In this document: one piece after another, positions 47,209 to 60,711 of the stretch | Layout of the letters: the number at the start of each line of letters is the position of its first letter | Numbering within the stretch: position 1 is the first letter of the stretch | NCBI GenBank assembly: GCA_014727915.1 | Contig: WJMO01000001.1 | Coordinates: 1-62,005, forward strand | Direction of reading: 5' to 3' | Length of the DNA stretch: 62,005 nt | Source of the DNA: Candidatus Altiarchaeales archaeon | GTDB taxonomy: Archaea > Altiarchaeota > Altiarchaeia > IMC4 > SCGC-AAA252-I15 | Translations under genes and position numbers: made by a program | The notes under the pieces: model-generated | What the model was told of the DNA's origin: nothing | The model's input: only the letters and a program-made list of their open reading frames with translations | Databases searched by the model: none

Positions 47209-48960
47209 ATGTCTAACGAACTTTCAAAGTTTGAAAAAACATTTATTGTCTGGACCGACGGAAGCCTCCCGAAGGAGACTTACGAGTTCCTAGACAGCAG
47301 GTCATTCTCTGAAATCGTGGGTTATTACCTCGATGAACTCCGGATGCACGAGTCAAACCTCCTTAGGATATTCCCCCAGGGATTGGAGGATGCGGAGCAG
47401 GTCAAGGTCATAGTCGATCTTTTCAAGAAGCTTTACTACAATACTGTGGAAGACATCGAAAGGGATTATCCCGAATACGAGCATCTCCTAGGTGACAGGT
47501 ATAACCTGCAGCAGTTCATAGAGAACTTATACAATTTCTGGAGGGGCTTTGAGAGATATATAGTATGTTCATCGCTTGACGAGATGGGATACGATAAGAG
47601 GCCGTATAGGACGTTTAGGGACACGATCTCCCATATGAACCATCTTGTCCGGAAAACTTATAGGGACATTTCAGAGAACCTCATGGGCGAATCATACAAT
47701 GTCTATCGCCAGGTGTCATCAGGGTTCTCGGTCGGGATCATAGCCGTGAACAAGGAATGGGGGTGTCCTGACGAATATATGAGACTGGATGCAATACCCA
47801 TGGTAACGCAGGTCCTCCTATACCCCCCGCTGATATTGGATCCGCTGATGAACAAGAGGAAGGGCAGTTTTAAGAAGGTCGAGTCAAACCCCCTGGAGGG
47901 CATCGAATTCCAGGATAAACAATGGCTCTGTTATCCCGCAAAAGTCGGGAGTCTTTTGATTCACATCTACTTCCATAACAAATTCATGAGCTTGGGCTGC
48001 TCTGCTGCGAACTTGTTCGAGCTGGCTAAGAGCGAGGACCTTGAACGAAAACCGGATGCGATCTACGCGTTCGGAGTCGACGAGGACGGCCTAGACAGGT
48101 TCGGCTGTGAGACGGTCTTTTACGAAGACGAGAAGAACGACCTACTGATCGCGGCAGTTCCGAGGAAAAACGATTATGGATACTTTGGCTACCTGAAGAA
48201 GATGGTTCTGACGCTCCACAATATTTTGATGATGAAGCGCGGGAGATTCCCCATACACGGGGCGATGGTGGGCATAGAACTCAAGGAAGGCAGGAAAGCG
48301 AACGTAGTCATAGTAGGGGATACTGGCGCCGGAAAATCCGAGTCATTGGAGGCGTTCAGGACGATAGGGGACGCAAAGATAAAGGACATGACCATCATAT
48401 TCGACGACATGGGCTCATTGGAGGTCGATGACGAGGGGAGGGTGAAGGCATACGGGACTGAAATAGGCGCGTTCGTCCGTTTGGACGACCTACAGCCTGG
48501 CTTTGCATTCGGGAACATCGACCGCTCGATAATAATGAGCCCCCAGAAGGTGAACGCGAGGGTGGTGTTGCCTGTGACAACCATAGAAGAAGTGCTAAGA
48601 GGGAATGAGGTTGACTTCTTCCTTTACGCGAACAACTACGAGGAAATCGGAGAAAAAGAAGAGATAATCGAGAGATTCGGCACAGCAGACGAAGCACTGA
48701 GGGTTTTCAGCGAGGGAAAGGTCATGTCGAAGGGAACGACCGAATCATCAGGCGTGGTAAAAACTTATTTCGCGAATATTTTCGGACCCCCGCAGTACAA
48801 AGAACTGCACGACAATATCGCTACAAGATACTTCGGAAAAATGTTTGAAACGGGCGTTTTCGTGGGCCAGGTCAGGACCAGGCTGGGTATCGAGGGCTAT
48901 GAGACGGAAGGGCCGATGATAGCCGCGCAAGAACTATTGAAACTGATAGACCGTAGTTAG
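47209..48960 (+). CDS. PEP-carboxykinase-like P-loop protein (atypical family)
   Basis: YFGYLKK, PIHGAM, GDTGAGKSE, FDDMG, GTE.GAF, NARV. Confidence 0.72.
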   Translation: MSNELSKFEKTFIVWTDGSLPKETYEFLDSRSFSEIVGYYLDELRMHESNLLRIFPQGLEDAEQVKVIVDLFKKLYYNTVEDIERDYPEYEHLLGDRYNLQQFIENLYNFWRGFERYIVCSSLDEMGYDKRPYRTFRDTISHMNHLVRKTYRDISENLMGESYNVYRQVSSGFSVGIIAVNKEWGCPDEYMRLDAIPMVTQVLLYPPLILDPLMNKRKGSFKKVESNPLEGIEFQDKQWLCYPAKVGSLLIHIYFHNKFMSLGCSAANLFELAKSEDLERKPDAIYAFGVDEDGLDRFGCETVFYEDEKNDLLIAAVPRKNDYGYFGYLKKMVLTLHNILMMKRGRFPIHGAMVGIELKEGRKANVVIVGDTGAGKSESLEAFRTIGDAKIKDMTIIFDDMGSLEVDDEGRVKAYGTEIGAFVRLDDLQPGFAFGNIDRSIIMSPQKVNARVVLPVTTIEEVLRGNEVDFFLYANNYEEIGEKEEIIERFGTADEALRVFSEGKVMSKGTTESSGVVKTYFANIFGPPQYKELHDNIATRYFGKMFETGVFVGQVRTRLGIEGYETEGPMIAAQELLKLIDRS

Positions 48961-49037
48961 GAAGACATGCATATCCAAGCTCGCCTCTTGTATTTTTTTA
49001 ACTGTTTTTTATATTTGTTTGCACATATTTGGTTCCT

Positions 49038-50270
49038 ATGAGTCTACAGGTAACCGAACTGCTATTCATCCTGATGGTCTCCTGGTATGCCGGCAGGTTC
49101 TTCCGGCGTAGACTGGATATGCCGCCCATGCTGGGGGAGTTGATCGCGGGTTTGTTGTTCGGCCCTACTGTCCTGGGTTGGATCGAGTCTAGCGAGTTCA
49201 TCGATTTTCTCGCTGAACTGGGGATTTTCTTTTTGATGTTCTATGCTGGTTTGGAGACCGACCCCAAGCTGTTCTTCAAGAACATCAAACCATCGATTCT
49301 GGTGGGCATCCTGGGTTTTGCTATACCCCTGGGATTGGGTTATTACGGGACTTTATGGTTCATGCCCGGGGCCACAAGCATTCAGGCCCTGTTCGTGGGT
49401 CTGGGTTTGAGCATCACCGCGATAGCGGTGAACGCCCGCATACTTATGGACCTGAGCCTATGCAACTCAAGGATAGGGAATATCCTCATCGGCTCGGCTG
49501 TCGTCGACGACGTCCTGTCTCTCGGGTTTTTTTCCGCTGTCGTCAAGACAGTCGAGGTAGGGTATTTTTCGTATAATACTTTCTTATTCTCTCTCGCATA
49601 TGTCCTGGCCTTTTTCGCCATCACCTATTTTATCGGGAAGATTGTTCTGCCCTACGTCAACAAGTACTATCTTGAAGGGGGAGGCCACGGATTCACCTTC
49701 GCCTTGTTGACTGCCTTTTTGTTCGCCTTGATCGGGGAGGCGCTGGGGTTGCACGTCATCATCGGCGCGTTCTTCGCCGGCTTGTTCGTGCGTGAGGAGA
49801 TAAAAAGACAGGATGTCCTGGATGCGTTAAACGACCGGTTGATGACCATCAGCTACGGGTTTCTAGGGCCGATTTTTTTCGTGTCTTTATCCTTCCACGT
49901 CGTTTTGGGCTTGATATTGGAGTACATAGAGTTCTTGACCATAGTCTTGATAATCGCTTTTATCGGGAAATTCGCAGGCTCATACGCGGGTGGCTGGCTT
50001 GCAGGGCTTAAAAGAGAGGAGAACGCCGTTGTAGCCATGGGCATGAACGGACGGGGGGCCGTGGAACTAATCCTCGTGGGTGTGGGGATAAATCTTGGAG
50101 TCCTTAACAAAGAAATCTCATCCATCCTGGTGTCAATGGCATTCATCACCACATTCCTAACCCCCATTGGATTCAAATTCCTTTTGGAGCGCTTTAATCT
50201 GGATTCCTGCATGATAAACCCAGACCAGGAGAAAGACACGCCAACCAGAGAGGGGATAAACCAGGGTTAG
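49038..50270 (+). CDS. CPA2 cation/proton antiporter
   Basis: ~13 TM, AVVDD, GAFFAG, GRGAVELI. Confidence 0.9.
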   Translation: MSLQVTELLFILMVSWYAGRFFRRRLDMPPMLGELIAGLLFGPTVLGWIESSEFIDFLAELGIFFLMFYAGLETDPKLFFKNIKPSILVGILGFAIPLGLGYYGTLWFMPGATSIQALFVGLGLSITAIAVNARILMDLSLCNSRIGNILIGSAVVDDVLSLGFFSAVVKTVEVGYFSYNTFLFSLAYVLAFFAITYFIGKIVLPYVNKYYLEGGGHGFTFALLTAFLFALIGEALGLHVIIGAFFAGLFVREEIKRQDVLDALNDRLMTISYGFLGPIFFVSLSFHVVLGLILEYIEFLTIVLIIAFIGKFAGSYAGGWLAGLKREENAVVAMGMNGRGAVELILVGVGINLGVLNKEISSILVSMAFITTFLTPIGFKFLLERFNLDSCMINPDQEKDTPTREGINQG

Positions 50271-50388
50271 CCCCGCCAGGATCCCACTCGCTTTCAGCTC
50301 GCTTATCCTGGGAGAGTTCGTGAGCCACCAATGCTTCGATGTGACCTTATTTAGCCCCGCCAGGATTATGCCGGAAAAGTCCGAATCC
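50268..50388. repeat. 121-bp structured repeat, copy 1, containing two copies of the tRNA-Gln 3' end
   Basis: 120/121 identical to 52707-52827; TAGCCCCGCCAGGAT at 50268 and 50352. Confidence 0.95.
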
Positions 50389-50489
50389 CGGTTACAGACA
50401 TAGAGTAAAAGACTAAAAAGGCCAGGTTAGAGGGGTGGAAAAGTGGTTTTTGAGTTTCTTTTTAGTAGTTATGTATTAGATTATAGAGC

Positions 50490-51329
50490 ATGGAAAAGGG
50501 ATTGAGAAAGGAAATTAAATTTTCAATATTAAGAAGATTAACAGGACGGCAAAAGCCTTCTAAAAATAGAATAATCGCATCTATAGTTATCGTTATTGTT
50601 GTGTTGATTTTAACTTTTTTAGTTGGATTTTATTTCAACCAGTTTTTAACTAAACCAAGTGCAAACGTTGTTTTCCACCCATATACCGGGGATAATGAGA
50701 GCATACACATCCAGATTACAAATGGCCCAAAAAAGTTAACAGATGTTTCCTTGAAAGTAAAAACATGCCATATGAATGATTTTGAGTATATTCCTGTTCC
50801 GGATTTAATCGAGTATGAAACATATCCCGTTTCCTTGAACGATAAAGAAACTGCTTATGCACTGAAGAAGATTTTTCAAAAGGTTGTATGCGACCCAATG
50901 AATACCAGCACAAATCCAGAGTGTTGGATTAAAACATATATAATAAATGGAACGGCTTATGCACCCCCACAAAAATTTAATAAATATCGGTGTGGTTACT
51001 GTAAATATACATTAATTTTAAAGTCTAATGAATTTTCAAAAAATATAACGGATTTCTTCTTCTCCCCAATCGAAGTCAACACATACAGCTTGGATATTAC
51101 TCCCGAAACAGTACTCGATGTAAACGAAGAAGAAATGGAATTTTTTAGCCCAATTGCAATCAGATTATTTAGTCCATATGATGTCTGCATGCTTGAAACT
51201 GATGGAAAGTACGAAAGATGTAAAGACCAACCAATAATACCAGTTATCCAGAAACCCATTACCATGAGCATATCCCCAACCAACAAATCTTTGGGCAATA
51301 TAACTATAACGATAAAACAAAACACTTAA
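50490..51329 (+). CDS. Single-TM hypothetical protein, AT-rich
   Basis: Basic N-terminus, one TM, Cys-containing external domain. Confidence 0.75.
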   Translation: MEKGLRKEIKFSILRRLTGRQKPSKNRIIASIVIVIVVLILTFLVGFYFNQFLTKPSANVVFHPYTGDNESIHIQITNGPKKLTDVSLKVKTCHMNDFEYIPVPDLIEYETYPVSLNDKETAYALKKIFQKVVCDPMNTSTNPECWIKTYIINGTAYAPPQKFNKYRCGYCKYTLILKSNEFSKNITDFFFSPIEVNTYSLDITPETVLDVNEEEMEFFSPIAIRLFSPYDVCMLETDGKYERCKDQPIIPVIQKPITMSISPTNKSLGNITITIKQNT

Positions 51330-51449
51330 GAATAACTGAAAATCATTAGAATTAATACTTGGATAATTGGGTGAGGGGCTAGGGTTGTGCCCCGCACCCT
51401 GGTTGCCTTCTCCGGACCCTATATGTTAAGCATGTACTCCTGAACATGA

Positions 51450-51469
51450 TATACTTTAATTAAAGTATA
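51450..51469. promoter_or_regulatory. Perfect 20-bp palindrome upstream of the AAA_14 ATPase gene
   Basis: TATACTTTAATTAAAGTATA, with flanking TGAAC/GTTCA. Confidence 0.55.
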
Positions 51470-51522
51470 GTTCAATTTTAGTAGGATATTTATTTAAATA
51501 TAGTTGATTCTAAGTATAATAC

Positions 51523-52686
51523 ATGTACGTTGAAAGGGATGTAGAGGAACACTTCGACAAGGTAACGGAGATATACAATATTGTCGCAGTGGTAGGAGCC
51601 AGACAGAGTGGTAAAACCACGTTACTTAGAAAGAAGCTGGGTGAATTGGATGGGGAGTATGTGACACTTGACGACCCTGACGCACGGGACATGTTCAACG
51701 AAGACATAAAAAAATTCGAGAAACAGTACATTGTATCAAATAAGATAACTGGAATCGACGAGGCACAATACGGACAAGATGCAGGAATTAAACTCAAGTA
51801 TCTTGCAGATAAAGGATACAAATTATGGATTACATCATCCAGTGAAACGCTTTTGAGTAAAGATGTTTTATCCCACCTGGTAGGAAGAGTTTCAATAATA
51901 AAACTCTATCCGTTCTCGCTCCAAGAAATCAAAAAAGCAAAAAAAACAAGAGAGCTAACCGATAAGATTAAGCAGAGATTAGTTTGGGAACACGCAGCTT
52001 ATGGCGGATATCCTAAAGTAGTGCTGGAAGACGACACTGAATCAAGAAAAATCATCCTTCGTGACTTAATCAATACAATGCTATTGAAAGACGTCTCTCA
52101 AACATTCTCGATAGACGACTTAACCAGCCTAGAAAAACTCGCAAAGTATCTGGCAGTCAACACGGGAAACATAATCAGCTATGAAAACATCACAAGCTAC
52201 TTGGATATAGCCTTCCAGACACTTAAAAAGTATTTGGATGCGATGGAAAAAAGCTATATCACAAAAACCATACAGCCATACTACACGAACAAAAACAAGG
52301 AGCTTACAAAAAAACCAAGGATATACTTCATCGACACTGGGCTAAGAAACACACTCATTAACAATTACCCAACAGACGTGCAGGGAAAAGACTTTGAAAA
52401 CTACGTACTAGCCGAATTACTAAAACAGGGACATCAGGTAAAATACTGGCGCACCAAAAGCAAAGCGGAAGTCGACTTCATCATAGAAAAAGACAATATT
52501 CTCATACCAATAGAAGTGAAGACAACTACCGCCAAAACCACATCAGGCCTTAAATCATTCATAAAAACATACAAACCGGAAAAAGCCTATATCACCACAT
52601 ACAAAAGCCGGACAAAACAAGAAGAGTATAACGGCTGCACAATCACGGCCACAGACATACACGGACTATTAAAAAACATATCGTAG
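51523..52686 (+). CDS. AAA_14 / DUF4143 ATPase (COG1373-like)
   Basis: GARQSGKT, IDEAQ, YGGYP, YFIDTGL, EVDFII...PIEVK. Confidence 0.9.
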   Translation: MYVERDVEEHFDKVTEIYNIVAVVGARQSGKTTLLRKKLGELDGEYVTLDDPDARDMFNEDIKKFEKQYIVSNKITGIDEAQYGQDAGIKLKYLADKGYKLWITSSSETLLSKDVLSHLVGRVSIIKLYPFSLQEIKKAKKTRELTDKIKQRLVWEHAAYGGYPKVVLEDDTESRKIILRDLINTMLLKDVSQTFSIDDLTSLEKLAKYLAVNTGNIISYENITSYLDIAFQTLKKYLDAMEKSYITKTIQPYYTNKNKELTKKPRIYFIDTGLRNTLINNYPTDVQGKDFENYVLAELLKQGHQVKYWRTKSKAEVDFIIEKDNILIPIEVKTTTAKTTSGLKSFIKTYKPEKAYITTYKSRTKQEEYNGCTITATDIHGLLKNIS

Positions 52687-52721
52687 GGGTTCGAACTATT
52701 TTGAAATAGCCCCGCCAGGAT
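52683..52721. repeat. 39-bp repeat (tRNA-Gln 3' end plus trailer)
   Basis: 38/39 identical to 57288-57326. Confidence 0.92.
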
Positions 52722-52827
52722 CCCACTCGCTTTCAGCTCGCTTATCCTAGGAGAGTTCGTGAGCCACCAATGCTTCGATGTGACCTTATTTAGCCCCGCC
52801 AGGATTATGCCGGAAAAGTCCGAATCC
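52707..52827. repeat. 121-bp structured repeat, copy 2
   Basis: One mismatch to copy 1; TAGCCCCGCCAGGAT at 52707 and 52791. Confidence 0.95.
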
Positions 52828-52916
52828 TCACATACGAATTAAGAGCATGTGATTATAAACCAGGGGATAGAGCGGGAGAAAAGTTATTTATCATAATAAG
52901 TAAGCATTCTAAAAGG

Positions 52917-54080
52917 TTAGATATAGGATAATCCTCTCTCTTTGAATACTTCCTTTGCAAATTCTTTAGTCAATCTTGGAACCTCTTTTTCTAATCCACG
53001 ATCCAATACAGAATCACACCGTACTATTATCTCTCTCGGAGTTCCTTGAGTAAGTTTAAATAGGTACTCCACAAAATCATCAGTGAAAGGTATCAAAGGC
53101 TCGTTTTTATATTTGCCTCTGACTCTATCGTAACTTAATCTCTTTTCTATTAAGTTGATGGTATCTTTTTCAGTTAGAGGATCTAAGGAAATCAATTCGG
53201 TTATTCTTTCCTTCAAGGCATTAATCGGTCCGCCTGTTTTTCTTTCTTTATCTCCCAAAGTAGTGAGCTTCTTCCATCCATCACTTGATACTGCGATAAA
53301 TAAAGCCATATTTGCAGCATTTGATTTCAGGCTATCTGGAATGGCAATTTGAAGATCATATAAACTTCTAAAAAAGGCTAAGACTGTTGATTGTTGTGAT
53401 TTTGATAAAACACTAAATAGATATTCAAATTCATCAACACAAATAACTAGGCTTTGAAATCCAGAAGAACCAAGAATATATAACAGACCAATCAGATACT
53501 CTTTGGCTATTCTAACTCTATCAATCTTTCTTATAACGCCTATTTTATTTAGTTCATTTTTCGTGGGTGAAACATCACCTACTAAAAAAGAAATTGCTAA
53601 GTTGCGTAAAGGATTTTTTCTAGCTGGGTAAAGTGATGTCTGGATTTCACCAGTGAATATTCTTTGAAAAACATTGCCAACGTCAGGATAGATTTTTTTT
53701 AATTCATTAATGGTGTCTGTTTCGACTTTTATCTCATCAAAGTTAATTTCTTTAAGAACTCTTTGTATGAAATCGACTTCAGGTTTGGAAATTTTTTCTT
53801 CAGATTGAAGTGTCAGGTAGATGGGATATGCCCCCTTATTGTTAGCTCTTTCTTTAACGTCTAACAAAGATAAGGTTTTTCCCATCCCATAGTTACCTAC
53901 AAAAAAAACAAGAAAATTAGTTTTAGATGTTTTCATACTATCCTCAAGAATTTTATCATACGTTTTCTGTTCCCTCTTCCGGCTGACAATCAACTTTACA
54001 TCGTCTTTAGTCGCAGTCCTGGATTTAAATAGTTGACTGTCTTTAAGACCATATTCTTTTTGAAGGAAACTATCTTTCAT
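52917..54080 (-). CDS. AAA+ P-loop ATPase (reminiscent of BrxD/DUF2791)
   Basis: GNYGMGKT Walker A, VICVDEFE Walker B, ALKERI, PFT...TQGTPRE lid. Confidence 0.82.
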   Translation of the reverse strand: MKDSFLQKEYGLKDSQLFKSRTATKDDVKLIVSRKREQKTYDKILEDSMKTSKTNFLVFFVGNYGMGKTLSLLDVKERANNKGAYPIYLTLQSEEKISKPEVDFIQRVLKEINFDEIKVETDTINELKKIYPDVGNVFQRIFTGEIQTSLYPARKNPLRNLAISFLVGDVSPTKNELNKIGVIRKIDRVRIAKEYLIGLLYILGSSGFQSLVICVDEFEYLFSVLSKSQQSTVLAFFRSLYDLQIAIPDSLKSNAANMALFIAVSSDGWKKLTTLGDKERKTGGPINALKERITELISLDPLTEKDTINLIEKRLSYDRVRGKYKNEPLIPFTDDFVEYLFKLTQGTPREIIVRCDSVLDRGLEKEVPRLTKEFAKEVFKERGLSYI

Positions 54081-54952
54081 ATTTTATCTTTTGAGTATTT
54101 GATATATATCGTTTTATAGTATTCATTTCCATGCTTGAATAACCTGTCTCCAATGCCTCCAAGGCCGATTGGAAGGCCAAGAGAGATTATATAATTATTA
54201 CTTGTAAGGGGGATTGACCTTAATAATTCATCAAATTGGTATTCTGTTAAAATCAGCCCATGATTGTTATAAAAATCTACAGCAACTAGTTCCCGTAATT
54301 TAGTAATATCCGCCCCACCTGCTTTTTCTGAAGGGGATAACAAATCATAGTTTTTGAATAGTATTGCTCTAAAATTATCACGTTTAGAGGTTACATCTAA
54401 ATCTCGCTTTGCTTCACTTAGCCCATTATTATTTAATGAGATGTATGTCCCTTTATTTTTCAATACTATTAAACCACAGCCATCCAACAGTCCTAGCCAT
54501 TTGTTAATACGTTCTTCTATTTGTCTTTTTGAGGGACCCCCTATTTTTGAAGTTAATTTCTTAAAGAAATCTTCTTTGGAGATAAAACCTTGAGTCTCAG
54601 TACTTTCAATCAACATAGTACTAAATCCTATGTTGTCATCCAATTCCAGTAGTAATGCTCTAAAAACCCTTAACGTCTCAGTATTATTCTGATTTAATGA
54701 TTCCAAAACAAGTTTTCCATTGGCACTTGGTTTTATCAAATCCTCATATCCAATAATCAAACCCAAATATCTGAGAGAAGGGATAACCATACCTCTAAAC
54801 GTGCTTTTTTCCGAGGTATCAGGATATAACCTTAAAACGCAGTCTCTCTGATTTTCCCTATCATATGGGTATTTGTCAAAACAAACTAGGGATTCGATTA
54901 AATGTTTAATTCTTATCTCCTTTATTATGGGCAATATTTTTTTATCTGTCAT
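54077..54952 (-). CDS. Hypothetical protein, probably tandem winged-helix domains
   Basis: PSLRYLGLI and WLGLLDGCGLI resemble wHTH helix-to-wing ends; ATGA-coupled on both sides. Confidence 0.6.
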   Translation of the reverse strand: MTDKKILPIIKEIRIKHLIESLVCFDKYPYDRENQRDCVLRLYPDTSEKSTFRGMVIPSLRYLGLIIGYEDLIKPSANGKLVLESLNQNNTETLRVFRALLLELDDNIGFSTMLIESTETQGFISKEDFFKKLTSKIGGPSKRQIEERINKWLGLLDGCGLIVLKNKGTYISLNNNGLSEAKRDLDVTSKRDNFRAILFKNYDLLSPSEKAGGADITKLRELVAVDFYNNHGLILTEYQFDELLRSIPLTSNNYIISLGLPIGLGGIGDRLFKHGNEYYKTIYIKYSKDKI

Positions 54953-55947
54953 GGTTTTAAACCATCTCCTACACAGTGATCATAAAATTTACAGTATTGA
55001 CAACCGCTCCTATCTTCAGGTAAAGGCGGTGAATTATCTTTAGAGATTATGTCATACGCTTCATTTCTCACATCTAAAAACCAAGTTCTGGCTTCATCAT
55101 CTATTGGGAAGATATATATCTGGGGGGAAGTAATAGGTTTAAAGAATCTAGTGTGCCGAGTAGGGAGGTAATACACTATCCCAAAATTTATATCTTCATT
55201 CTTTTCATTTTCGTAAGCTAATGCATAGCCTATGCATGTAAGGAAATAGTGATCTTCTATACCGCCAACCCCAGATTTTATATCACCGATAGCTTTAAAG
55301 TCACGTAATAAAAAATCTGGGCGAACATTTTCACTTATGCCTATCTGTTTAGGGTTTGGATTTAATAGTATGGGGTCTACTTTATCAAGAATTAGGTGTT
55401 TATGATCCAATTCGGTTTTTTTAGTTAACATCTTTCTATGGAAAAGTCTCGAAAACAACTCTTCTCTTCCAGCAAAATTCAACAACTTTAAAAATCGCTC
55501 GGGATTTTCTTCTTCAGTGCCACTAAGTCTTTCCAAACCGGAAAAATCTCCGGAATTATCTAGTTTAAATTCATTTGAAAATTTATCTAATTTTTTCCGT
55601 ATAGTACTATATTTGCCGATATTTCCCGCAGTTATAGATTTATCATGAGCATTGACGATATATTTTTCAGTAATAGTACCTGCCTTTCGCCCCCAAGTTG
55701 GTCGAGCAGAAGTGGAAGAAAGCCTATTTTTTCCTTTATTAAAATACAAATTTCTTCGTGATGGACAAAGTCTAGAGGAAATATCACTAACAGAAAGGGG
55801 ACGTATTTCATCAGTAGCTAGACCTAGAGAAAATCTTCCTGTCAAGAACGTATCTCGTTTATAACCCCTTAACTGTATATTTGAAACATCTTGATTTAAT
55901 TCCTTATCTGGTCGTGACAAGTTCCACGCTGTTATTACTTTATACAT
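54949..55947 (-). CDS. Cas4/Csa1-like PD-(D/E)xK nuclease with a 4-Cys Fe-S site
   Basis: LSVSDISSRLCPSRR, RPD, GDIK, GYALAYE, C-terminal CxxCxxxxxC. Confidence 0.82.
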   Translation of the reverse strand: MYKVITAWNLSRPDKELNQDVSNIQLRGYKRDTFLTGRFSLGLATDEIRPLSVSDISSRLCPSRRNLYFNKGKNRLSSTSARPTWGRKAGTITEKYIVNAHDKSITAGNIGKYSTIRKKLDKFSNEFKLDNSGDFSGLERLSGTEEENPERFLKLLNFAGREELFSRLFHRKMLTKKTELDHKHLILDKVDPILLNPNPKQIGISENVRPDFLLRDFKAIGDIKSGVGGIEDHYFLTCIGYALAYENEKNEDINFGIVYYLPTRHTRFFKPITSPQIYIFPIDDEARTWFLDVRNEAYDIISKDNSPPLPEDRSGCQYCKFYDHCVGDGLKP

Positions 55948-55965
55948 TTCATACCACGAGTTTTA

Positions 55966-57222
55966 TTAACTACATCTAAATTGGAGTATGTATTCTTCGG
56001 AAATTGGATTGGTGGAACTCCTTCTGATTGGTGTTTGAACTCTGTTTTTTATTGAATCACATATGGGTGTTTCAGCTAACTGCCATTCTTCTTCCTCAGC
56101 TATGTTTACCAATACCCTTGAGAGGGGTACTTTAATCCCAGATACTTCGGGGTGTCCTATAACGAATATGGCTTTTCCTTGAGGGTTTATTTTTTCTCGA
56201 AGTTCTCTGAATGTTAGCCTTATATCTTGGACATATGATAGGATGCTTTCAAGTCTTTTTTCAGACCTTGAACGAATAGACGTAACCCACCTAGATTTCT
56301 TCTCTTTGTTGGGTAGTGTTTTCTCGGAAATATCGTGATGATATGAGGCTCTGCCAATGATTGTTTTTCTGATAAATTCTCCATCATCCTCGTTTTCAAG
56401 ACCGAAGAAACGTGTCTGTAAAGAAACAGCCCTCCTATAATTGATGCCATCACCGTATGGGGGGGAGGTTATTACTAAATCAAAATTATCTATCGGCCAA
56501 CTGGAATTATTTTTTGAGTCACCTGTAGACAGTTTAACATTGGGGTTGGGAAACTTGGAGTTTGAAAATATTTTTTGAGCTAGAAGTATTTTTTCCACAC
56601 GCTTTTTGAATTTCTCCAATATCTCTTCCTGAGAGAAATCAGGGGCTACCGGTGATCGTTTTGAGCGAGTAGGGACTATCACTCCTGAATCAGCAGCTGA
56701 AACATCCCAGACCACTTGAGATAAAGCCGTAAAGAGAGCAGGATAAACATACTTATTTTGATAAGTATTAATCCAGTCACGTAAACTCATGAGATAGCCA
56801 TATACTTCATCTTTAAACCAGATGTCTCTATTTTCCCAGGAATCCAGGCCATTAAATGTTTGGATGTCTTCCGCATCTAAGTCTAAAGCAGTTTGTAGTC
56901 TTTTTAGATTCTGATTGTTCAACTTAGTCAATTTAGCTTTGGCGATTAAGACAGGAACCCTTAGTATGTCAACACCTGAAACACTGAATCCGTAGGATCT
57001 TGCAACCAGTAATGTGGTTCCAGAACCACAAAATGGATCAAAAACCTGTATTTTATCTGGTTCTTTATCAAATTCATTGCATGCGTTTTTTAAAACATAA
57101 TTCGCAATTTTGGGGGTCATTTTAGCAGGATATCTATGGATATGATCTGCATCAAGAATATCGTTAGACATACCCTGATTTAACTCTGTTTCTTCAAGAA
57201 ACGAAGATTCAAAATCTCCCAT
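55966..57222 (-). CDS. DNA methyltransferase, N4-cytosine type, alpha motif order
   Basis: HRYPAKM, FDPFCGSGTT (motif I) before ITSPPY (motif IV); start ATG 57222 or 57243. Confidence 0.88.
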   Translation of the reverse strand: MGDFESSFLEETELNQGMSNDILDADHIHRYPAKMTPKIANYVLKNACNEFDKEPDKIQVFDPFCGSGTTLLVARSYGFSVSGVDILRVPVLIAKAKLTKLNNQNLKRLQTALDLDAEDIQTFNGLDSWENRDIWFKDEVYGYLMSLRDWINTYQNKYVYPALFTALSQVVWDVSAADSGVIVPTRSKRSPVAPDFSQEEILEKFKKRVEKILLAQKIFSNSKFPNPNVKLSTGDSKNNSSWPIDNFDLVITSPPYGDGINYRRAVSLQTRFFGLENEDDGEFIRKTIIGRASYHHDISEKTLPNKEKKSRWVTSIRSRSEKRLESILSYVQDIRLTFRELREKINPQGKAIFVIGHPEVSGIKVPLSRVLVNIAEEEEWQLAETPICDSIKNRVQTPIRRSSTNPISEEYILQFRCS

Positions 57223-57311
57223 ATACAAGAATTGTACATACAAATTAAAATAAGTTCGATGGAAGAAAAAAAGGGGAATACGCAGATGTAGGGATTCGAA
57301 CTATTTTGAAA

Positions 57312-57384
57312 TAGCCCCGCCAGGATTCGAACCTGGGTCCGCGGTTCCAAAGACCGCTAGGATTGGCCACTACCCTACGGGGCT
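57312..57384 (-). tRNA. tRNA-Gln(TTG)
   Basis: AGCCCCG/CGGGGCT acceptor, GCGGT-CT-TTG-GA-ACCGC anticodon arm, CCAGG-TTCGAAT-CCTGG T-arm; CCA not encoded. Confidence 0.97.
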
Positions 57385-57442
57385 GAGTAGATTGTTCTTT
57401 CTTTTGGTACAGGTTTTCTTTCTTTTGAAGAAAGAAAAGGTG

Positions 57443-57590
57443 TGCGCCCACCGGGACTCGAACCCGGGCCATAAGCTAACCTCGGAACCTGTCCGCTGGA
57501 ACATTATTTTCCGCGGGCGCTTTTGCGCCCCGAAGGGGCGGTAAAAGGGTCCCTTGGAAGGCTTAGGTCCTACCACTAGACTATGGACGC
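57443..57590 (-). tRNA. tRNA-Gly(TCC) with 77-nt intron (57478-57554) at position 37/38
   Basis: GCGTCCA/TGGGCGC acceptor, TAAGC-CT-TCC-A[intron]A-GCTTA, BHB motif (CUUC/GAGG helix, 3-nt bulges, GGGACC/GGTTCC outer helix). Confidence 0.93.
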
Positions 57591-57825: not shown

Positions 57826-60711
57826 TCAGAGTTTTTTGTTGATTTCGCTGAGCTCTTTTTTGATCTTTTCGGCTGATTTTAGGGTTTCGGTGGTGTTTAT
57901 GTCCTTCTCCCCTGTTTCTTCCGGTTTATCCGTTTTTTCCTCTGGTGTCTTGGCTTCTTCTTCCAGTGGTTTTTCCTTTTTTATTATCTCCTTCTGTGGT
58001 TTTTTCCTGGCTTTGGATATCAGCTCGTCCAGTTTGGAGGCTACCGTCTCCTCTGTGGGTTTTTGTTCTGTTTTTGGCTCTTCCGTGGGGATTTCCGGTT
58101 TGGGTTCCCCTGTTTCTTCGGGTTTTTCCTCGGGGGTTTCGTCAGGTAGTTCGAGTTTCAGCTCTCCCGCGTCTTCGGGTTTTTCCTCGGGGGTTTCGCC
58201 TGTGGTTTCCGGCTTTTCTCCTTTGGGCTTTTTCGGTTCTTTGGTTTCTTCTCCGCCGAATAGGTCCAGCTCTTCTGCCTCATCGTCGTCTACGGGGAGC
58301 TTTATTATCACCTCTCCCTGGTCGGCGGAGGGGGTCTCTTCTTTGGCTTCCTCGTCGGGCAGGGGTATTCCGGTTATCTCTTCCAGGGCTGGCATGCCCT
58401 CGCCGAATATCTCATCCTCTGAGGGTGCCTTCTCGTCTTCCTCCAGTTTGTCGGGCAGTAGCGAAGTGTAGTCCACTCCTGTTTCCTCTCCTTTCTTGAG
58501 ATTCTTCCTCTCCCGGAGCTTGGCTATAATGAAGATGATCGCGAGCAGGGTCAGGAGTGCCGCGAGCCCGGCTATTATCATGATCGGGTACTGGCTTGTG
58601 TCCCTGCCGTCCTCTTCGGTTGTCTGTTCCGCTCCTATCTCTAGTATGAGCTCTCCGCATTTGATGCTCCCGTCCCGGTCGTCTATGCTCCGGAACAGCT
58701 GCCGTGCCTTTTCGGCGTGGTCGAGTGCCAGCTCGTTCTCCTGTTTTGTGTAGTAGTCGACTGCGGTGGCGTAGTGTTGCTGGGCTTCCACCCCCACTTG
58801 GCATATGCGTTTGAGCGACTGTGTCTTGGCCAGGTTCTCCTCGTCCGAGACGTTCATGTAGAGTGTCTCGGCTTTTTCGGCTTCGGCTATGCACTCCTGG
58901 TAGTTTGAGGTCTCGTACCTGTTGTCTGCGTTTGTGTAGTGCTGGTCTGCCGCCGTTTTGGCTGCGATCTCATCAAGCTTGTCCTCTATGTTCGACAGTA
59001 GGGTTAGCGTGGTGGATATCATCCCCGAGTCCCCGAGCGTCGTGTAGGACTGTCTGGCCAAGGTGGCTTTCTCCCTGGCTCCCGTGTAGTTGCCGCTACG
59101 GTATAGGCGCATGGCCATCTCGTAGTTCTCGTTGGCCTTCGGATATTCCTTGGTGTTTTCCACGAGCTTGGTGGCTTTCTCTATCCCGGGTGTGTAGTTG
59201 AGCAGCTCGTATATCTCCAGCGACTTGTGGCTGTATACGCTGCCTTGGACGTAGTCCTTCGCCCGGGAGTATTCGAGGGCCCGCTGGTAGAAGTATAGGG
59301 CGTCCAGCTGGTCTATGGCGTTGTTCAACAGTCTGAGGGCCTTGTCTGTCCGGTTGCTGTCGTCCAGCTCCATGTATATCCGCTCAGACTCGGAGGCCAG
59401 TGCCTTGGCTGTCTCGTAGTCGCCTTCGCTGTAGTTGTCCTCGGCCAGCTGGTATAGGCGGCCAGCCTCCAGGTATTCAAGCGAGCTGTTGAGGTACTCG
59501 AGGGTTTTCATCCGGTATTCGGTGTCGTTCAGCTCCGCGTATGCTTCGGCTGCTGCCATGGCATGGTCCCTCGCCTCTCCGAAGTCCCCGGAAAGGTAGT
59601 ATTCCATTGTCTTGTTCAGGTTCTCGTCCGCTTGCAGGTCCTTCAGGTAGTCGGGGTTCATCTCGTAGGCTGTCGTCTGCCTGGCACCCAAGACCACAAG
59701 GTTGGTCTTGTCCGGGGTTGTGAGCTGGCCTGCCGCCATGTCGGTGATCGGGTAGTCTACCTCGTATGCGTATTTTTCCCTTCCGTTGTGGTCTAGTGCG
59801 TATACGAACTCCCCCGATGCTATGAAGACTTCGGGTATGTTGTCGCCGTCCACGTCTCCTGCGGCTATTGTGGGCTTCAAAGCAGGGAGCCGGTACTCCC
59901 ATAGGAGCGCCCCCCCTGCCGATATCGCATATAGTGTGTCATTTTCAGTTGCTGCGAGCAGCTCCCCCAGTCCGTCGTTGTTTATGTCGTATGCGTAGGC
60001 GGCCGTAACCGGGCCTGTCGGGTACCGGAGTATCCTGCCCCCAGTGCCCTTGAGGACGTGGAGGTAGTCGTGGGAGCCGGCGATGACCTCCTTCTTGTCG
60101 TCCCGGTTTATGTCCTCGGCGTAGACGGAATGGACAGAGCCCTCGGTCGTGTAAGTCCACTTAAGCGAACCGTCGGATTTTATCAGGTACACTTTCCCGC
60201 TCCTGGAGCCTGAAACGACTTCCTTGCCTTCGTCGCCTGTTATGTCATCGATGTGTATGGAGAGGGAGTACCCGTATCCGCGGTGCACCCACTTGAGCAT
60301 GTTGTTCTCCAGTGTGGGATCGCGTTCTAGAACGAATATGGGGTGGTTGTACTCTGACATCCCGGCGCTGCAGGTCTTGGCCTCAACAACCGAGCCGACG
60401 ACTATGTCAGTGTTGCCGTTTCCGTCTATGTCATCGACCATCATGGTGTTCGGGGAGTTCTGAGGCCATATTACGGATATCTTGTTCCGCCATTTAAGGG
60501 TGCTGTCGTTGTCGAGTAGGTAGGCATAGCTTCCCTGCTCCCTGAACAAGCCGATCGTCACGTCCTGTATGCCATCACCGTCGACGTCCCTGACTTCCAG
60601 GGTGTCGCCGCCGAGTGTGACGTCCCAGACGGGCGTGAGCGACGGGTATGACGCGGCAGCCGCCAGACCGGTTAAAACCAGCATCAACAGTGCTGTTTTA
60701 ACTTTTGCCAT
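57826..60711 (-). CDS. Type I membrane protein: FG-GAP/PQQ-like beta-propeller, TPR-like helical stalk, TM, acidic Glu/Lys/Pro-rich tail
   Basis: Signal peptide; DVDGDG, DIDGNG, DINNDG repeats; A..Y helical repeats; ETPEEKPE x2. Confidence 0.85.
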   Translation of the reverse strand: MAKVKTALLMLVLTGLAAAASYPSLTPVWDVTLGGDTLEVRDVDGDGIQDVTIGLFREQGSYAYLLDNDSTLKWRNKISVIWPQNSPNTMMVDDIDGNGNTDIVVGSVVEAKTCSAGMSEYNHPIFVLERDPTLENNMLKWVHRGYGYSLSIHIDDITGDEGKEVVSGSRSGKVYLIKSDGSLKWTYTTEGSVHSVYAEDINRDDKKEVIAGSHDYLHVLKGTGGRILRYPTGPVTAAYAYDINNDGLGELLAATENDTLYAISAGGALLWEYRLPALKPTIAAGDVDGDNIPEVFIASGEFVYALDHNGREKYAYEVDYPITDMAAGQLTTPDKTNLVVLGARQTTAYEMNPDYLKDLQADENLNKTMEYYLSGDFGEARDHAMAAAEAYAELNDTEYRMKTLEYLNSSLEYLEAGRLYQLAEDNYSEGDYETAKALASESERIYMELDDSNRTDKALRLLNNAIDQLDALYFYQRALEYSRAKDYVQGSVYSHKSLEIYELLNYTPGIEKATKLVENTKEYPKANENYEMAMRLYRSGNYTGAREKATLARQSYTTLGDSGMISTTLTLLSNIEDKLDEIAAKTAADQHYTNADNRYETSNYQECIAEAEKAETLYMNVSDEENLAKTQSLKRICQVGVEAQQHYATAVDYYTKQENELALDHAEKARQLFRSIDDRDGSIKCGELILEIGAEQTTEEDGRDTSQYPIMIIAGLAALLTLLAIIFIIAKLRERKNLKKGEETGVDYTSLLPDKLEEDEKAPSEDEIFGEGMPALEEITGIPLPDEEAKEETPSADQGEVIIKLPVDDDEAEELDLFGGEETKEPKKPKGEKPETTGETPEEKPEDAGELKLELPDETPEEKPEETGEPKPEIPTEEPKTEQKPTEETVASKLDELISKARKKPQKEIIKKEKPLEEEAKTPEEKTDKPEETGEKDINTTETLKSAEKIKKELSEINKKL

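Follow-up and report, generated by a model that had tools for sequence, protein, structure and literature searches.

What is the origin of a 121-nt direct repeat that lies downstream of a tRNA-Gln(UUG) gene in an Altiarchaeales genome, and why does it resemble part of that tRNA? We addressed this question in a 62,005-nt stretch of DNA (assembly GCA_014727915.1, contig WJMO01000001.1, positions 1 to 62,005; hereafter the window), where the two copies of the repeat occupy positions 50268-50388 and 52707-52827 and differ by one mismatch (99% identity). On the minus strand the repeat reads CCCAGG-[26 nt]-CCTGG-CGGGGCTA, while tRNA-Gln(UUG) (57312-57384, minus strand) reads CCCAGG-TTCGAAT-CCTGG-CGGGGCTA. 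A first-pass annotation of this DNA had described the repeat as the two strands of a T-stem split by a 26-nt insert, and the minus-strand sequence bears this out, as it does the inner element GC-GA-GC-TGAAA-GC-GA-GT (50286-50302) and the nature of the difference in copy 2 (CCCAGG to CCTAGG), by which a C-G pair becomes T.G when read on the tRNA-sense strand. What had been overlooked is that each 121-nt copy holds two 15-mers, TAGCCCCGCCAGGAT, the reverse complement of the final 15 nt of tRNA-Gln(UUG). This word occurs five times in the window against 0.18 expected, and 0/100 shuffles reach five.

We establish here the architecture of the repeat, the family to which it belongs, the covariation and strand bias of its hairpin, and the arrays and cargo that it delimits. 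The hairpin belongs to a conserved, covarying and strand-biased family tied to tRNA gene ends. Our tentative reading, held with slightly less than even confidence, is that the 121-bp repeat is a junction of a lineage-specific family of non-coding DNA modules attached to tRNA gene ends in a subgroup of Altiarchaeota, and that the module acts as the folded, strand-specific attachment site of an integrase-less cassette system.

Architecture of the repeat

In the sense of the tRNA, a module comprises a tRNA end 'x y' of 15-17 nt that spans T-loop to discriminator, a spacer S of ~35-40 nt, a hairpin, and a second 'x y'. The 5' arm of the hairpin, x', is the reverse complement of x; the inner stem carries tandem G.A or Watson-Crick pairs; and the distal x serves as the 3' arm. 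In the window, the 3' arm is a copy of the tRNA-Gln end and the 5' arm, CCAGGAT (50305-50311, ATCCTGG on the plus strand), is the complement of that end, with the hairpin fronting one of the two 15-mers. The order along the minus strand is tRNA-Gln, cassette 1 (57311-52828), 15-mer B, S, hairpin and 15-mer A, followed by cassette 2 (52706-50389), a second series of 15-mer B, S, hairpin and 15-mer A, and finally the stop codon of a convergent Na+/H+ exchanger gene. A 22-nt end adjoining 15-mer B is common to both cassettes, which accounts for the 121-nt length of the repeat. Both cassettes also carry a 24-nt motif, GTAGGG(A/G)TTCGAACTATTTTGAAA, adjoining the 15-mer on the tRNA side.

The exchanger ORF (49029-50270) ends in a TAG stop made of the first three plus-strand bases of repeat copy 1 (50268-50270). 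That this stop is formed by the distal 15-mer fits the idea that the distal copy represents the original 3' end of the tRNA, still in the context where it arose.

A module family at tRNA gene ends

A DNA search of relatives returned similar stretches in the congeneric genome G001 and near a tRNA-Val gene, and a covariance model, R1, was built from eight copies. In the window's own genome, nhmmer followed by R1 gave seven module sites with E <= 1.7e-16 and three weak matches. The seven comprise the two window copies and one site directly after each of five tRNA genes: tRNA-Ser(GGA), a tRNA-Ser-like gene (anticodon read as UGA; called Pro by ARAGORN with introns), tRNA-Val(GAC), an intron-containing tRNA-Thr(GGU) and tRNA-Gly(GCC). 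Across genomes, the covariance model places a module of ~85-100 nt directly after genes for tRNA-Val, Ser, Gly, Gln, Ile, Arg, Thr and Asp, and modules occur singly, in ~87-nt tandem arrays, or between small cassettes of toxin-antitoxin or defence genes. R1 matched 10/49 genomes of the order and 10/61 of the phylum sample, with up to 12 matches per genome; by family, matches were found in 8/20 genomes of the window's own family, in 1/2 of a second family and in 0/22 of the largest other family.

Of 45 aligned matches, 22 start within the final 13-16 nt of a same-strand tRNA, to which a separate check added one more. Another eight lie 70-246 nt beyond a tRNA, five of them at offsets of about one, two or three units (70-75, 159 and 246 nt), as expected of later units in ~87-nt tandem arrays; two matches at 112 nt are preceded by a degenerate unit or by other intervening sequence. 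A single match is located at a tRNA 5' end, on the opposite strand. For 13 the script reported no tRNA, which is an over-count because it also missed the tRNA-Gln of the window.

An exact-pattern scan of one genome per species (185,579 species) returned 32 stretches, of which two were full modules (93.9 and 59.4 bits), one in a record labelled Candidatus Altiarchaeota archaeon and the other in that of an uncultured archaeon; ten of the other 30 were partial or weak (<= 24.3 bits) and 20 had no match to the model. One scan of viral contigs gave no matches and another gave three chance matches; the sole full-length model alignment in viral contigs fell in apparently coding DNA, with neither a tRNA nor a repeat. 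Two metagenome scans for the cassette-end motif gave no matches.

The stem changes with the tRNA at which the module lies. The tRNA-Val module keeps the loop CTCGCTTACAGCTCGCTTA, while its duplicated end and the complement are both derived from tRNA-Val (CTGGCCCGG / CCGGGCCAG); at the tRNA-Ser-like gene the corresponding arms are GTTGAGAT/ATCTCAAC, the 5' arm complementing whichever end is duplicated. The proximal and distal tRNA-end 12-mers are identical in 28/38 full-length copies, differ by one base in seven and by two or more in three, which points either to ongoing exchange that homogenises the copies or to renewal of the units. Spacer S has 47% mean pairwise identity among copies, and 35-71% among tRNA-Val(GAC) modules of different genomes.

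Simpler identities for the module were considered. The tRNA model (RF00005) and ARAGORN bring only the two real tRNAs of the window to threshold, and a scan of 50200-50450 gave no Rfam family at E <= 10, tRNA included, and no ARAGORN call. A pseudo-tRNA or tandem tRNA duplicate was ruled out, given the lack of a tRNA model match and an S common to modules at different tRNAs. K-turn, box C/D and H/ACA RNAs were likewise dropped: there is no 3-nt bulge beside the G.A pairs, no C/D or ACA box, and no Rfam match.

Covariation and strand bias of the hairpin

Thermodynamic folding alone said little about the window copy. The first-pass annotation had pointed to folding of both strands as RNA and as single-stranded DNA; the full 121 nt folds no better than shuffled sequence (z 0.25 / 1.16 as RNA, 0.27 / -0.40 as DNA), and the hairpin alone (a 51-nt part) is only marginal (z -1.87 as sense RNA, -0.28 as antisense RNA, and 0.30 / -0.36 as DNA). 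RNA folding gave -20.3 kcal/mol for the tRNA-sense strand versus -12.7 for the antisense, and other module copies reach z -2.5 to -5.0 as RNA. The type-B hairpin of the window, formed by 15-mer B and the adjoining cassette end, has a DNA fold z of -2.43 (3/200 shuffles as good).

Across homologues, the hairpin covaries strongly. In 44 distinct copies, 84.4% of cells are paired versus 66.8% in shuffles and 16/18 pairs vary on both sides, although these pair counts are inflated, as the alignment (A3) was fitted to the covariance model and its rows are related. The covariation score over the same copies was 0.449, compared with 0.182 in shuffles, and 0/500 shuffles reached it. When the pairing partner was slid by 1-3 columns, pairing fell to 25-40% and the score to <= 0.083. 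An alignment of eight sequences made with MAFFT and not fitted to the model still gave 76.2% paired versus 64.3%, with 0/500 shuffles as high. The second hairpin proposed earlier inside S (GTCAC..CGA-AGCA-TTG-GTGGC) was not supported: 36.1% of its cells are paired versus 35.8% in shuffles, and 235/500 shuffles are at least as high.

Two further features characterise the fold. At the tandem G.A positions, 21-23 copies have G.A or A.G and 12-15 have A-T, indicating that the helix and not the mismatch is conserved. Among non-Watson-Crick cells read on the tRNA-sense strand, 43 are G.T or T.G versus 13 A.C or C.A, and this wobble bias marks the tRNA-sense strand as the folding strand. The apical loops are often C-GNA-G triloops, which are typical of stable DNA hairpins, and the unpaired 3' tail ranges from 4 to 8 nt among the stems inspected.

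A fold on the tRNA-sense strand with G.U-compatible changes could also belong to an RNA, transcribed as the 3' trailer of tRNA or cassette genes and acting in RNA processing, stability or decoy binding. The RNA fold scores of the other copies favour such an element, as does the duplication, which stops at the discriminator base in the copies inspected. Runs of five or more T are lacking inside 26/30 modules and occur within 40 nt past the distal copy in 10/30, so that the module is probably co-transcribed with the tRNA and may have an RNA role. Against an RNA element stand the cassette genes, which are oriented both ways, the lack of any Rfam family or ARAGORN call, a 3' tail too variable for a consistent acceptor/T minihelix, and the many triloops of the kind common in DNA hairpins. 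Together with the mirror modules described next, this makes an RNA element quite improbable.

Mirror modules at tRNA 5' ends

Two identical 87-nt units in mirror orientation immediately precede tRNA-Ser(GGA) in the genome to which the window belongs (C12:332051-332204). Each combines the tRNA's initial 12 nt and their complement with an inner hairpin and an S-like spacer; this tRNA gene has modules on both sides. Mirror units are also found at tRNA-Ser(GGA) in G001:C4 and G016:C40, that is, in three genomes in total. In these units both the duplicated segment and x' derive from the 5' end of the tRNA gene, and the fold lies on the strand antisense to the tRNA. It follows that each of the two DNA strands of a tRNA gene acquires the module at the 3' end, an arrangement that is hard to reconcile with a 3'-trailer RNA and fits a DNA process aimed at gene ends.

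The mirror modules also bear on the tRNA resemblance. The first-pass annotation saw a mimic of a tRNA T-arm with an expanded loop. The 3' arm is instead the duplicated tRNA 3' end (from T-loop nt ~58 to the discriminator) and the 5' arm its true reverse complement; in other copies this arm reaches 9-11 bp into the acceptor strand and there does not resemble the 5' strand of the tRNA's own T-stem; the mirror modules at the tRNA-Ser(GGA) 5' end contain no T-arm at all. Because of these mirror modules and of the 5' arm being a true reverse complement, the T-arm appearance is a by-product of copying a tRNA gene end. The companion suggestion of a tRNA-like signal for processing read-through transcripts is weakly supported at best, in view of the Rfam result at E <= 10, of cassette genes in both orientations and of 5' mirror copies on the opposite strand to the tRNA; a role in RNA 3' processing is unlikely.

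Arrays, cassettes and cargo

The features of the window are listed in Table 1. The operon of cassette 1 (52917-57243) looks like an uncharacterised defence system, PADLOC matching its individual parts only and no known system.

Table 1 Features of the tRNA-Gln(UUG) array in the window.
Feature	Position	Strand	Remarks
Repeat copy 1	50268..50388	-	distal junction of array
15-mer A1	50268..50282	-	duplicate of last 15 nt of tRNA-Gln, ATCCTGGCGGGGCTA on minus strand; 50276-50282 is the hairpin 3' arm
Type-A hairpin, remainder	50283..50311	-	internal loop; inner stem with tandem G.A (50286-50302); 5' arm CCAGGAT
Spacer S, ~40 nt	50312..50351	-	sequence conserved (ATCAC..TCGAAGC..GT.TCAC), structure not
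15-mer B1	50352..50366	-	second duplicate of tRNA-Gln 3' end
Left end common to cassettes	50367..50388	-	with 15-mer B forms type-B hairpin GGATT-CGGACTTTTCCG-GCAT-AATCC
Cassette 2	50389..52706		right-end motif GTAGGGGTTCGAACTATTTTGAAA at 52683-52706
Cassette 2 ORF	50490-51329	+	no family match
Cassette 2 ORF	51523-52686	+	AAA_14/DUF4143 ATPase; matches PADLOC candidate PDC-S01
Repeat copy 2	52707..52827	-	same sub-parts as copy 1; C-to-T (T.G wobble) in 5' arm
15-mer A2	52707-52721
15-mer B2	52791-52805
Common cassette end, copy 2	52806-52827
Cassette 1	52828..57311		four minus-strand genes; right-end motif GTAGGGATTCGAACTATTTTGAAA at 57288-57311
Cassette 1 gene	52917-54080	-	BrxD-like P-loop ATPase
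Cassette 1 gene	54077-54952	-	unknown, 291-aa protein
Cassette 1 gene	54949-55947	-	Cas4/Csa1-like nuclease
Cassette 1 gene	55966-57243	-	type II-like DNA methyltransferase
tRNA-Gln(UUG)	57312..57384	-	array seed; last 15 nt are the repeated core

Comparable arrays are present in related genomes. In G013:C30, eight copies of the tRNA-Gln 14-mer bound four cassettes of 0.75-1.6 kb, which carry VapBC-like genes, a membrane protein, PIN with MazE-like genes, and HVO_A0114 with DUF7718; there, as in the window, cassette genes face both ways relative to the site. G001:C25 holds at least two cassettes, one with a DUF6036 nucleotidyltransferase and a small partner and one with a DUF4143 ATPase, the latter 86.6% identical to window positions 51382-52808 with different neighbours. 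At G001:C8 a module, a small cassette and a degenerate module follow one another at a tRNA-Asp-type core. Genome G005 has only ~94 nt of the end of cassette 1 in common with the window (94.7% identical), before different DNA. In the window, a tRNA-Gly(UCC) gene with a 77-nt intron (57442-57590, minus strand; Rfam 52.7 bits, and called by ARAGORN with introns) lies 57 nt from tRNA-Gln, and the same Gly(UCC)-Gln(UUG) pair heads the array in G013:C30.

The cassette ends have a structure of their own. A hairpin precedes the 15-mer: it is an antisense T-arm-like word, AGGA(A/T)TCG(A/G)AC, which pairs through its first bases with the beginning of the core. Imperfect inverted repeats, GTTCGAATCCC(C/T)ACA, occur near both ends of the two window cassettes, the G001:C25 ATPase cassette and one G013 cassette; a gap of 10-12 nt separates them from the 15-mer, and no such repeat is present at the start of several cassettes. 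Other types of hairpin, which lack a complement arm, precede the duplicated 14-mer in G030, G027, G020 and G005. One of them, AGAAACAG-loop-CTGTTTCT, without a tRNA-complementary arm, stands before duplicated tRNA-Gln ends in two other genera (G020:C261 and G005:C249:3369), and its G020 copy comes after a fused inverted pair of GTTCGAACC words.

Terminal repeats of this kind raise the possibility of a non-autonomous transposon, casposon- or MITE-like, whose 15-17-nt repeat would be the target-site duplication left by a staggered cut at the tRNA end. Casposons insert at tRNA 3' ends with a ~15-bp repeat of the last bases of the tRNA and form tandem copies, family 2 casposons making duplications of 14-15 bp. 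The near-constant repeat length, ending at the tRNA 3' end, and the imperfect inverted repeats of the four cassettes just named agree with this picture. The distance of those repeats from the 15-mer and their absence from the start of several cassettes do not, and a search of the window's own genome for Cas1, which did not extend to PolB, found none. A fixed element cannot account for an internal arm whose complementarity changes with the target, and we regard a transposon of this type as very improbable.

Two features of the window lie outside the array: a 583-aa ORF upstream of the exchanger gene (47209-48960, plus strand) without a Pfam match, and a tandem pair of 54-nt sequences (58088-58198; 80% identical, 57-nt spacing) within a 961-aa FG-GAP/beta-propeller ORF (57826-60711, minus strand).

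Comparison with known systems

The first-pass annotation likened the repeat to attC or REP sites, and the idea of a strand-specific folded site fits: the stems covary while their sequence and length change, the wobble bias of 43:13 singles out one strand, and the sites bound cassettes. The modules have two covarying helices, an internal loop and a strand bias, and their activity as one folded strand is putative. Integron attC sites, and clusters of attC sites lacking an integrase (CALINs), have been reported in Archaea too, and in the passages of that report covered here Altiarchaeota feature only as the outgroup that roots a tree (PMC9668308). Like attC and CALIN sites, the modules are imperfect hairpins of ~45-50 nt with two helices around an internal loop, one strand of which folds better, and they lie between small cassettes of 0.7-4.5 kb, whose cargo abounds in toxin-antitoxin and anti-phage genes, with no adjacent integrase. 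Unlike attC, they lack the core boxes R'' RYYYAAC and R' GTTRRRY, having CCAGGAT/ATCCTGG as outer arms; the nearest plus-strand GTT-word, GTTAGCC, is found in copy 1 only and fails the RRR of the R' box. Further differences from attC are that the outer box is copied from the neighbouring tRNA gene and varies from tRNA to tRNA, that a tRNA gene, in place of attI/intI, seeds the array (with no PF00589 in the window region), and that a 15-17-nt direct repeat flanks every unit, with genes in mixed orientation.

The attP of CTX-type phages (integrative mobile elements exploiting Xer, IMEX), which relies on host Xer recombinases, offers a second parallel. Its inverted, target-like copies fold so that the hairpin stem imitates the duplex target, and after integration the target core is present as a repeat, one junction carries an inverted copy, and tandem arrays arise. 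In the modules, too, the x'/x stems complement each tRNA end and the distal core is repeated. Unlike CTX attP, the target is a tRNA gene end and not dif, the stems vary to match many different targets, neither an Xer-type nor any other recombinase could be linked to the modules, and single-stranded intermediates are here inferred.

REP/BIME elements with RAYT, and the IS200/IS605 family, are or contain short structured non-coding repeats that serve as single-stranded hairpin substrates. The target of IS608 base-pairs with a short internal sequence of the element and can thereby be reset, and IS200/IS605 elements make no target repeat; REPs are dispersed between genes and not tied to tRNA ends. 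The modules differ in being tied to tRNA ends, and the Y1 transposase family PF01797 was found in 0/5 genomes. From casposons they are set apart by the lack of Cas1 in the window's own genome and by the internal arm complementary to the target, while the 15-nt repeat expected of a casposon end is present. From tRNA-like RNAs (RF00005) they are set apart by the absence of any match to the tRNA model or ARAGORN.

The att sites of elements that integrate into tRNA genes are flanked by direct repeats of the tRNA 3' end, and so are the cassettes here, with five 15-mers in the window, two per cassette; an element-borne integrase was not present in the cassettes scanned. Stacked tRNA-seeded islands such as the tycheposons of Prochlorococcus (bioRxiv 10.1101/2020.12.28.424599) rank, with attC/CALIN arrays and CTX-type attP, among the closest analogues; in the available text of the preprint they likewise have a full tRNA at one end, partial copies between units pushed outward, adaptive or defensive cargo, and degenerate remnants. 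The same text describes tyrosine or serine recombinases and attachment sites of ~40 nt, and the word 'hairpin' occurs in it 0 times (bioRxiv 10.1101/2020.12.28.424599). Compared with the tycheposons described there, the units of the modules have no recombinase and are much smaller, and include an 85-nt cargo-less unit at many tRNAs. No published account of such modules surfaced in the abstracts and passages searched.

Search for an acting enzyme

No recombinase domain was detected in the six cassette ORFs of the window or in nine cassette ORFs scanned from G013 and G001. PF00589 matched twice in the window's own genome, once on contig C4 and once on C3, and not in the window region. One of these genes, for a 394-aa tyrosine integrase (C4:3100-4284, minus strand), belongs to a conventional ~7-kb element adjoining tRNA-Asp (C4:3007-10160), which is flanked by GGCCGGGGCGT, an 11-12-nt tRNA-end repeat, and followed by an 89-nt derivative consisting of the element's two ends only. 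In G027, an integrase-type element starts right after the distal core of a module, and no tRNA body is present in the ~100 nt examined upstream of the two modules, which suggests that hairpin and core can serve as an integration target.

These elements bring up a more conventional explanation, in which a series of integrase-mediated integrations at tRNA-Gln, like those of tRNA-seeded genomic islands, left the 15-mers behind as attL/attR cores, and S and the hairpin are cargo-less remnants of double-stranded attP arms, the hairpin being a protein-binding palindrome or terminator with no folded role. Every unit is indeed flanked by partial tRNA 3' ends, the 7-kb element and its two-ends derivative exist in the same genome, and the hairpins lacking a complement arm in G030, G027, G020 and G005 are in line with this view; stacked integrations and partial tRNAs scattered in islands are also described in the available text of the tycheposon preprint (bioRxiv 10.1101/2020.12.28.424599). 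A protein-binding palindrome, however, should keep its sequence, and here sequence, stem length and loop vary while pairing persists. Duplex DNA would not be expected to show the excess of G.T over A.C, none of the loci examined held an intact parent element with S at one end and the hairpin at the other, and PF00589 was unmatched in 6/10 module-bearing genomes. We therefore consider ordinary integration scars unlikely.

Several results weigh against our own preferred reading of a folded attachment site. Besides the inflated pair counts of alignment A3, the window hairpin is thermodynamically unremarkable as DNA (z 0.30), and the T-run distribution leaves room for an RNA role. No recombinase is linked to the modules, and PF00589 is present in 4/10 module-bearing genomes versus 26/39 others. 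Cas1 (PF01867) gave no matches in the window's own genome (90.6% complete), the only one covered by that search. SSV-type integrase, resolvase, Y1 transposase (PF01797), reverse transcriptase and TnpB-type proteins were not over threshold in five genomes, of which only G013 had an IS110 match; all genomes searched for enzymes are incomplete metagenome-assembled genomes (MAGs, 57-97% complete). Neither an excision joint nor a circle nor an empty site was observed, and two pattern scans of metagenomes gave no match.

Individual enzymes were rejected as partners. A resident tyrosine recombinase lacks a positive association with the modules (PF00589 in 4/10 versus 26/39), and serine recombinase, Y1 transposase, reverse transcriptase, TnpB, IS110 and Cas1 lack a consistent presence. 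An SSV-type integrase gene split across the att site was also discarded, PF16795 being found in 0/5 genomes and the indels of the alignment having no codon pattern.

Proposed mechanism

If the modules are folded attachment sites, the unit of hairpin and tRNA-end core would be recognised as a folded single strand, the module-sense strand. The primary site would be the natural T-arm and acceptor 3' strand of the tRNA gene. Each inserted unit would bring a new hairpin and core and so regenerate the target, with the consequence that units stack outward from the tRNA, either empty (85-87 nt, S and hairpin) or bearing toxin-antitoxin or defence genes as cargo. The window would then represent two cargo units downstream of tRNA-Gln, each followed by the 121-bp junction of cassette end, 15-mer, S, hairpin and 15-mer. 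We infer that strand exchange takes place within the 15-mer, that the site acts as single-stranded DNA, and that the enzyme acts in trans.

A bolder version of this proposal is an undescribed mobile-cassette system of Altiarchaeota, in which the attachment site, a folded single-stranded hairpin, is complementary to 9-17 nt at the 5' or 3' terminus of a tRNA gene and so could be programmed for any of them, and builds target-regenerating, integron-like arrays of toxin-antitoxin and defence cassettes without a recognisable integrase. We hold this to be doubtful; if real, it would call for a recombinase of a new kind or for a host enzyme able to read DNA folds that resemble a tRNA.

Biological implications

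R1 is a practical marker for cassette arrays and accessory genes in MAGs of Altiarchaeota, and even if the modules are scars, the family accounts for conserved non-coding repeats that annotation would miss. Should the reading as a folded attachment site be right, it would be a third case of folded single-strand recombination sites, after integron attC and CTX attP, and an apparently re-targetable one, in which base pairing to the end of the tRNA gene determines site specificity. In this way a little-studied archaeal lineage would capture defence and toxin-antitoxin genes and stack them at its tRNA genes.

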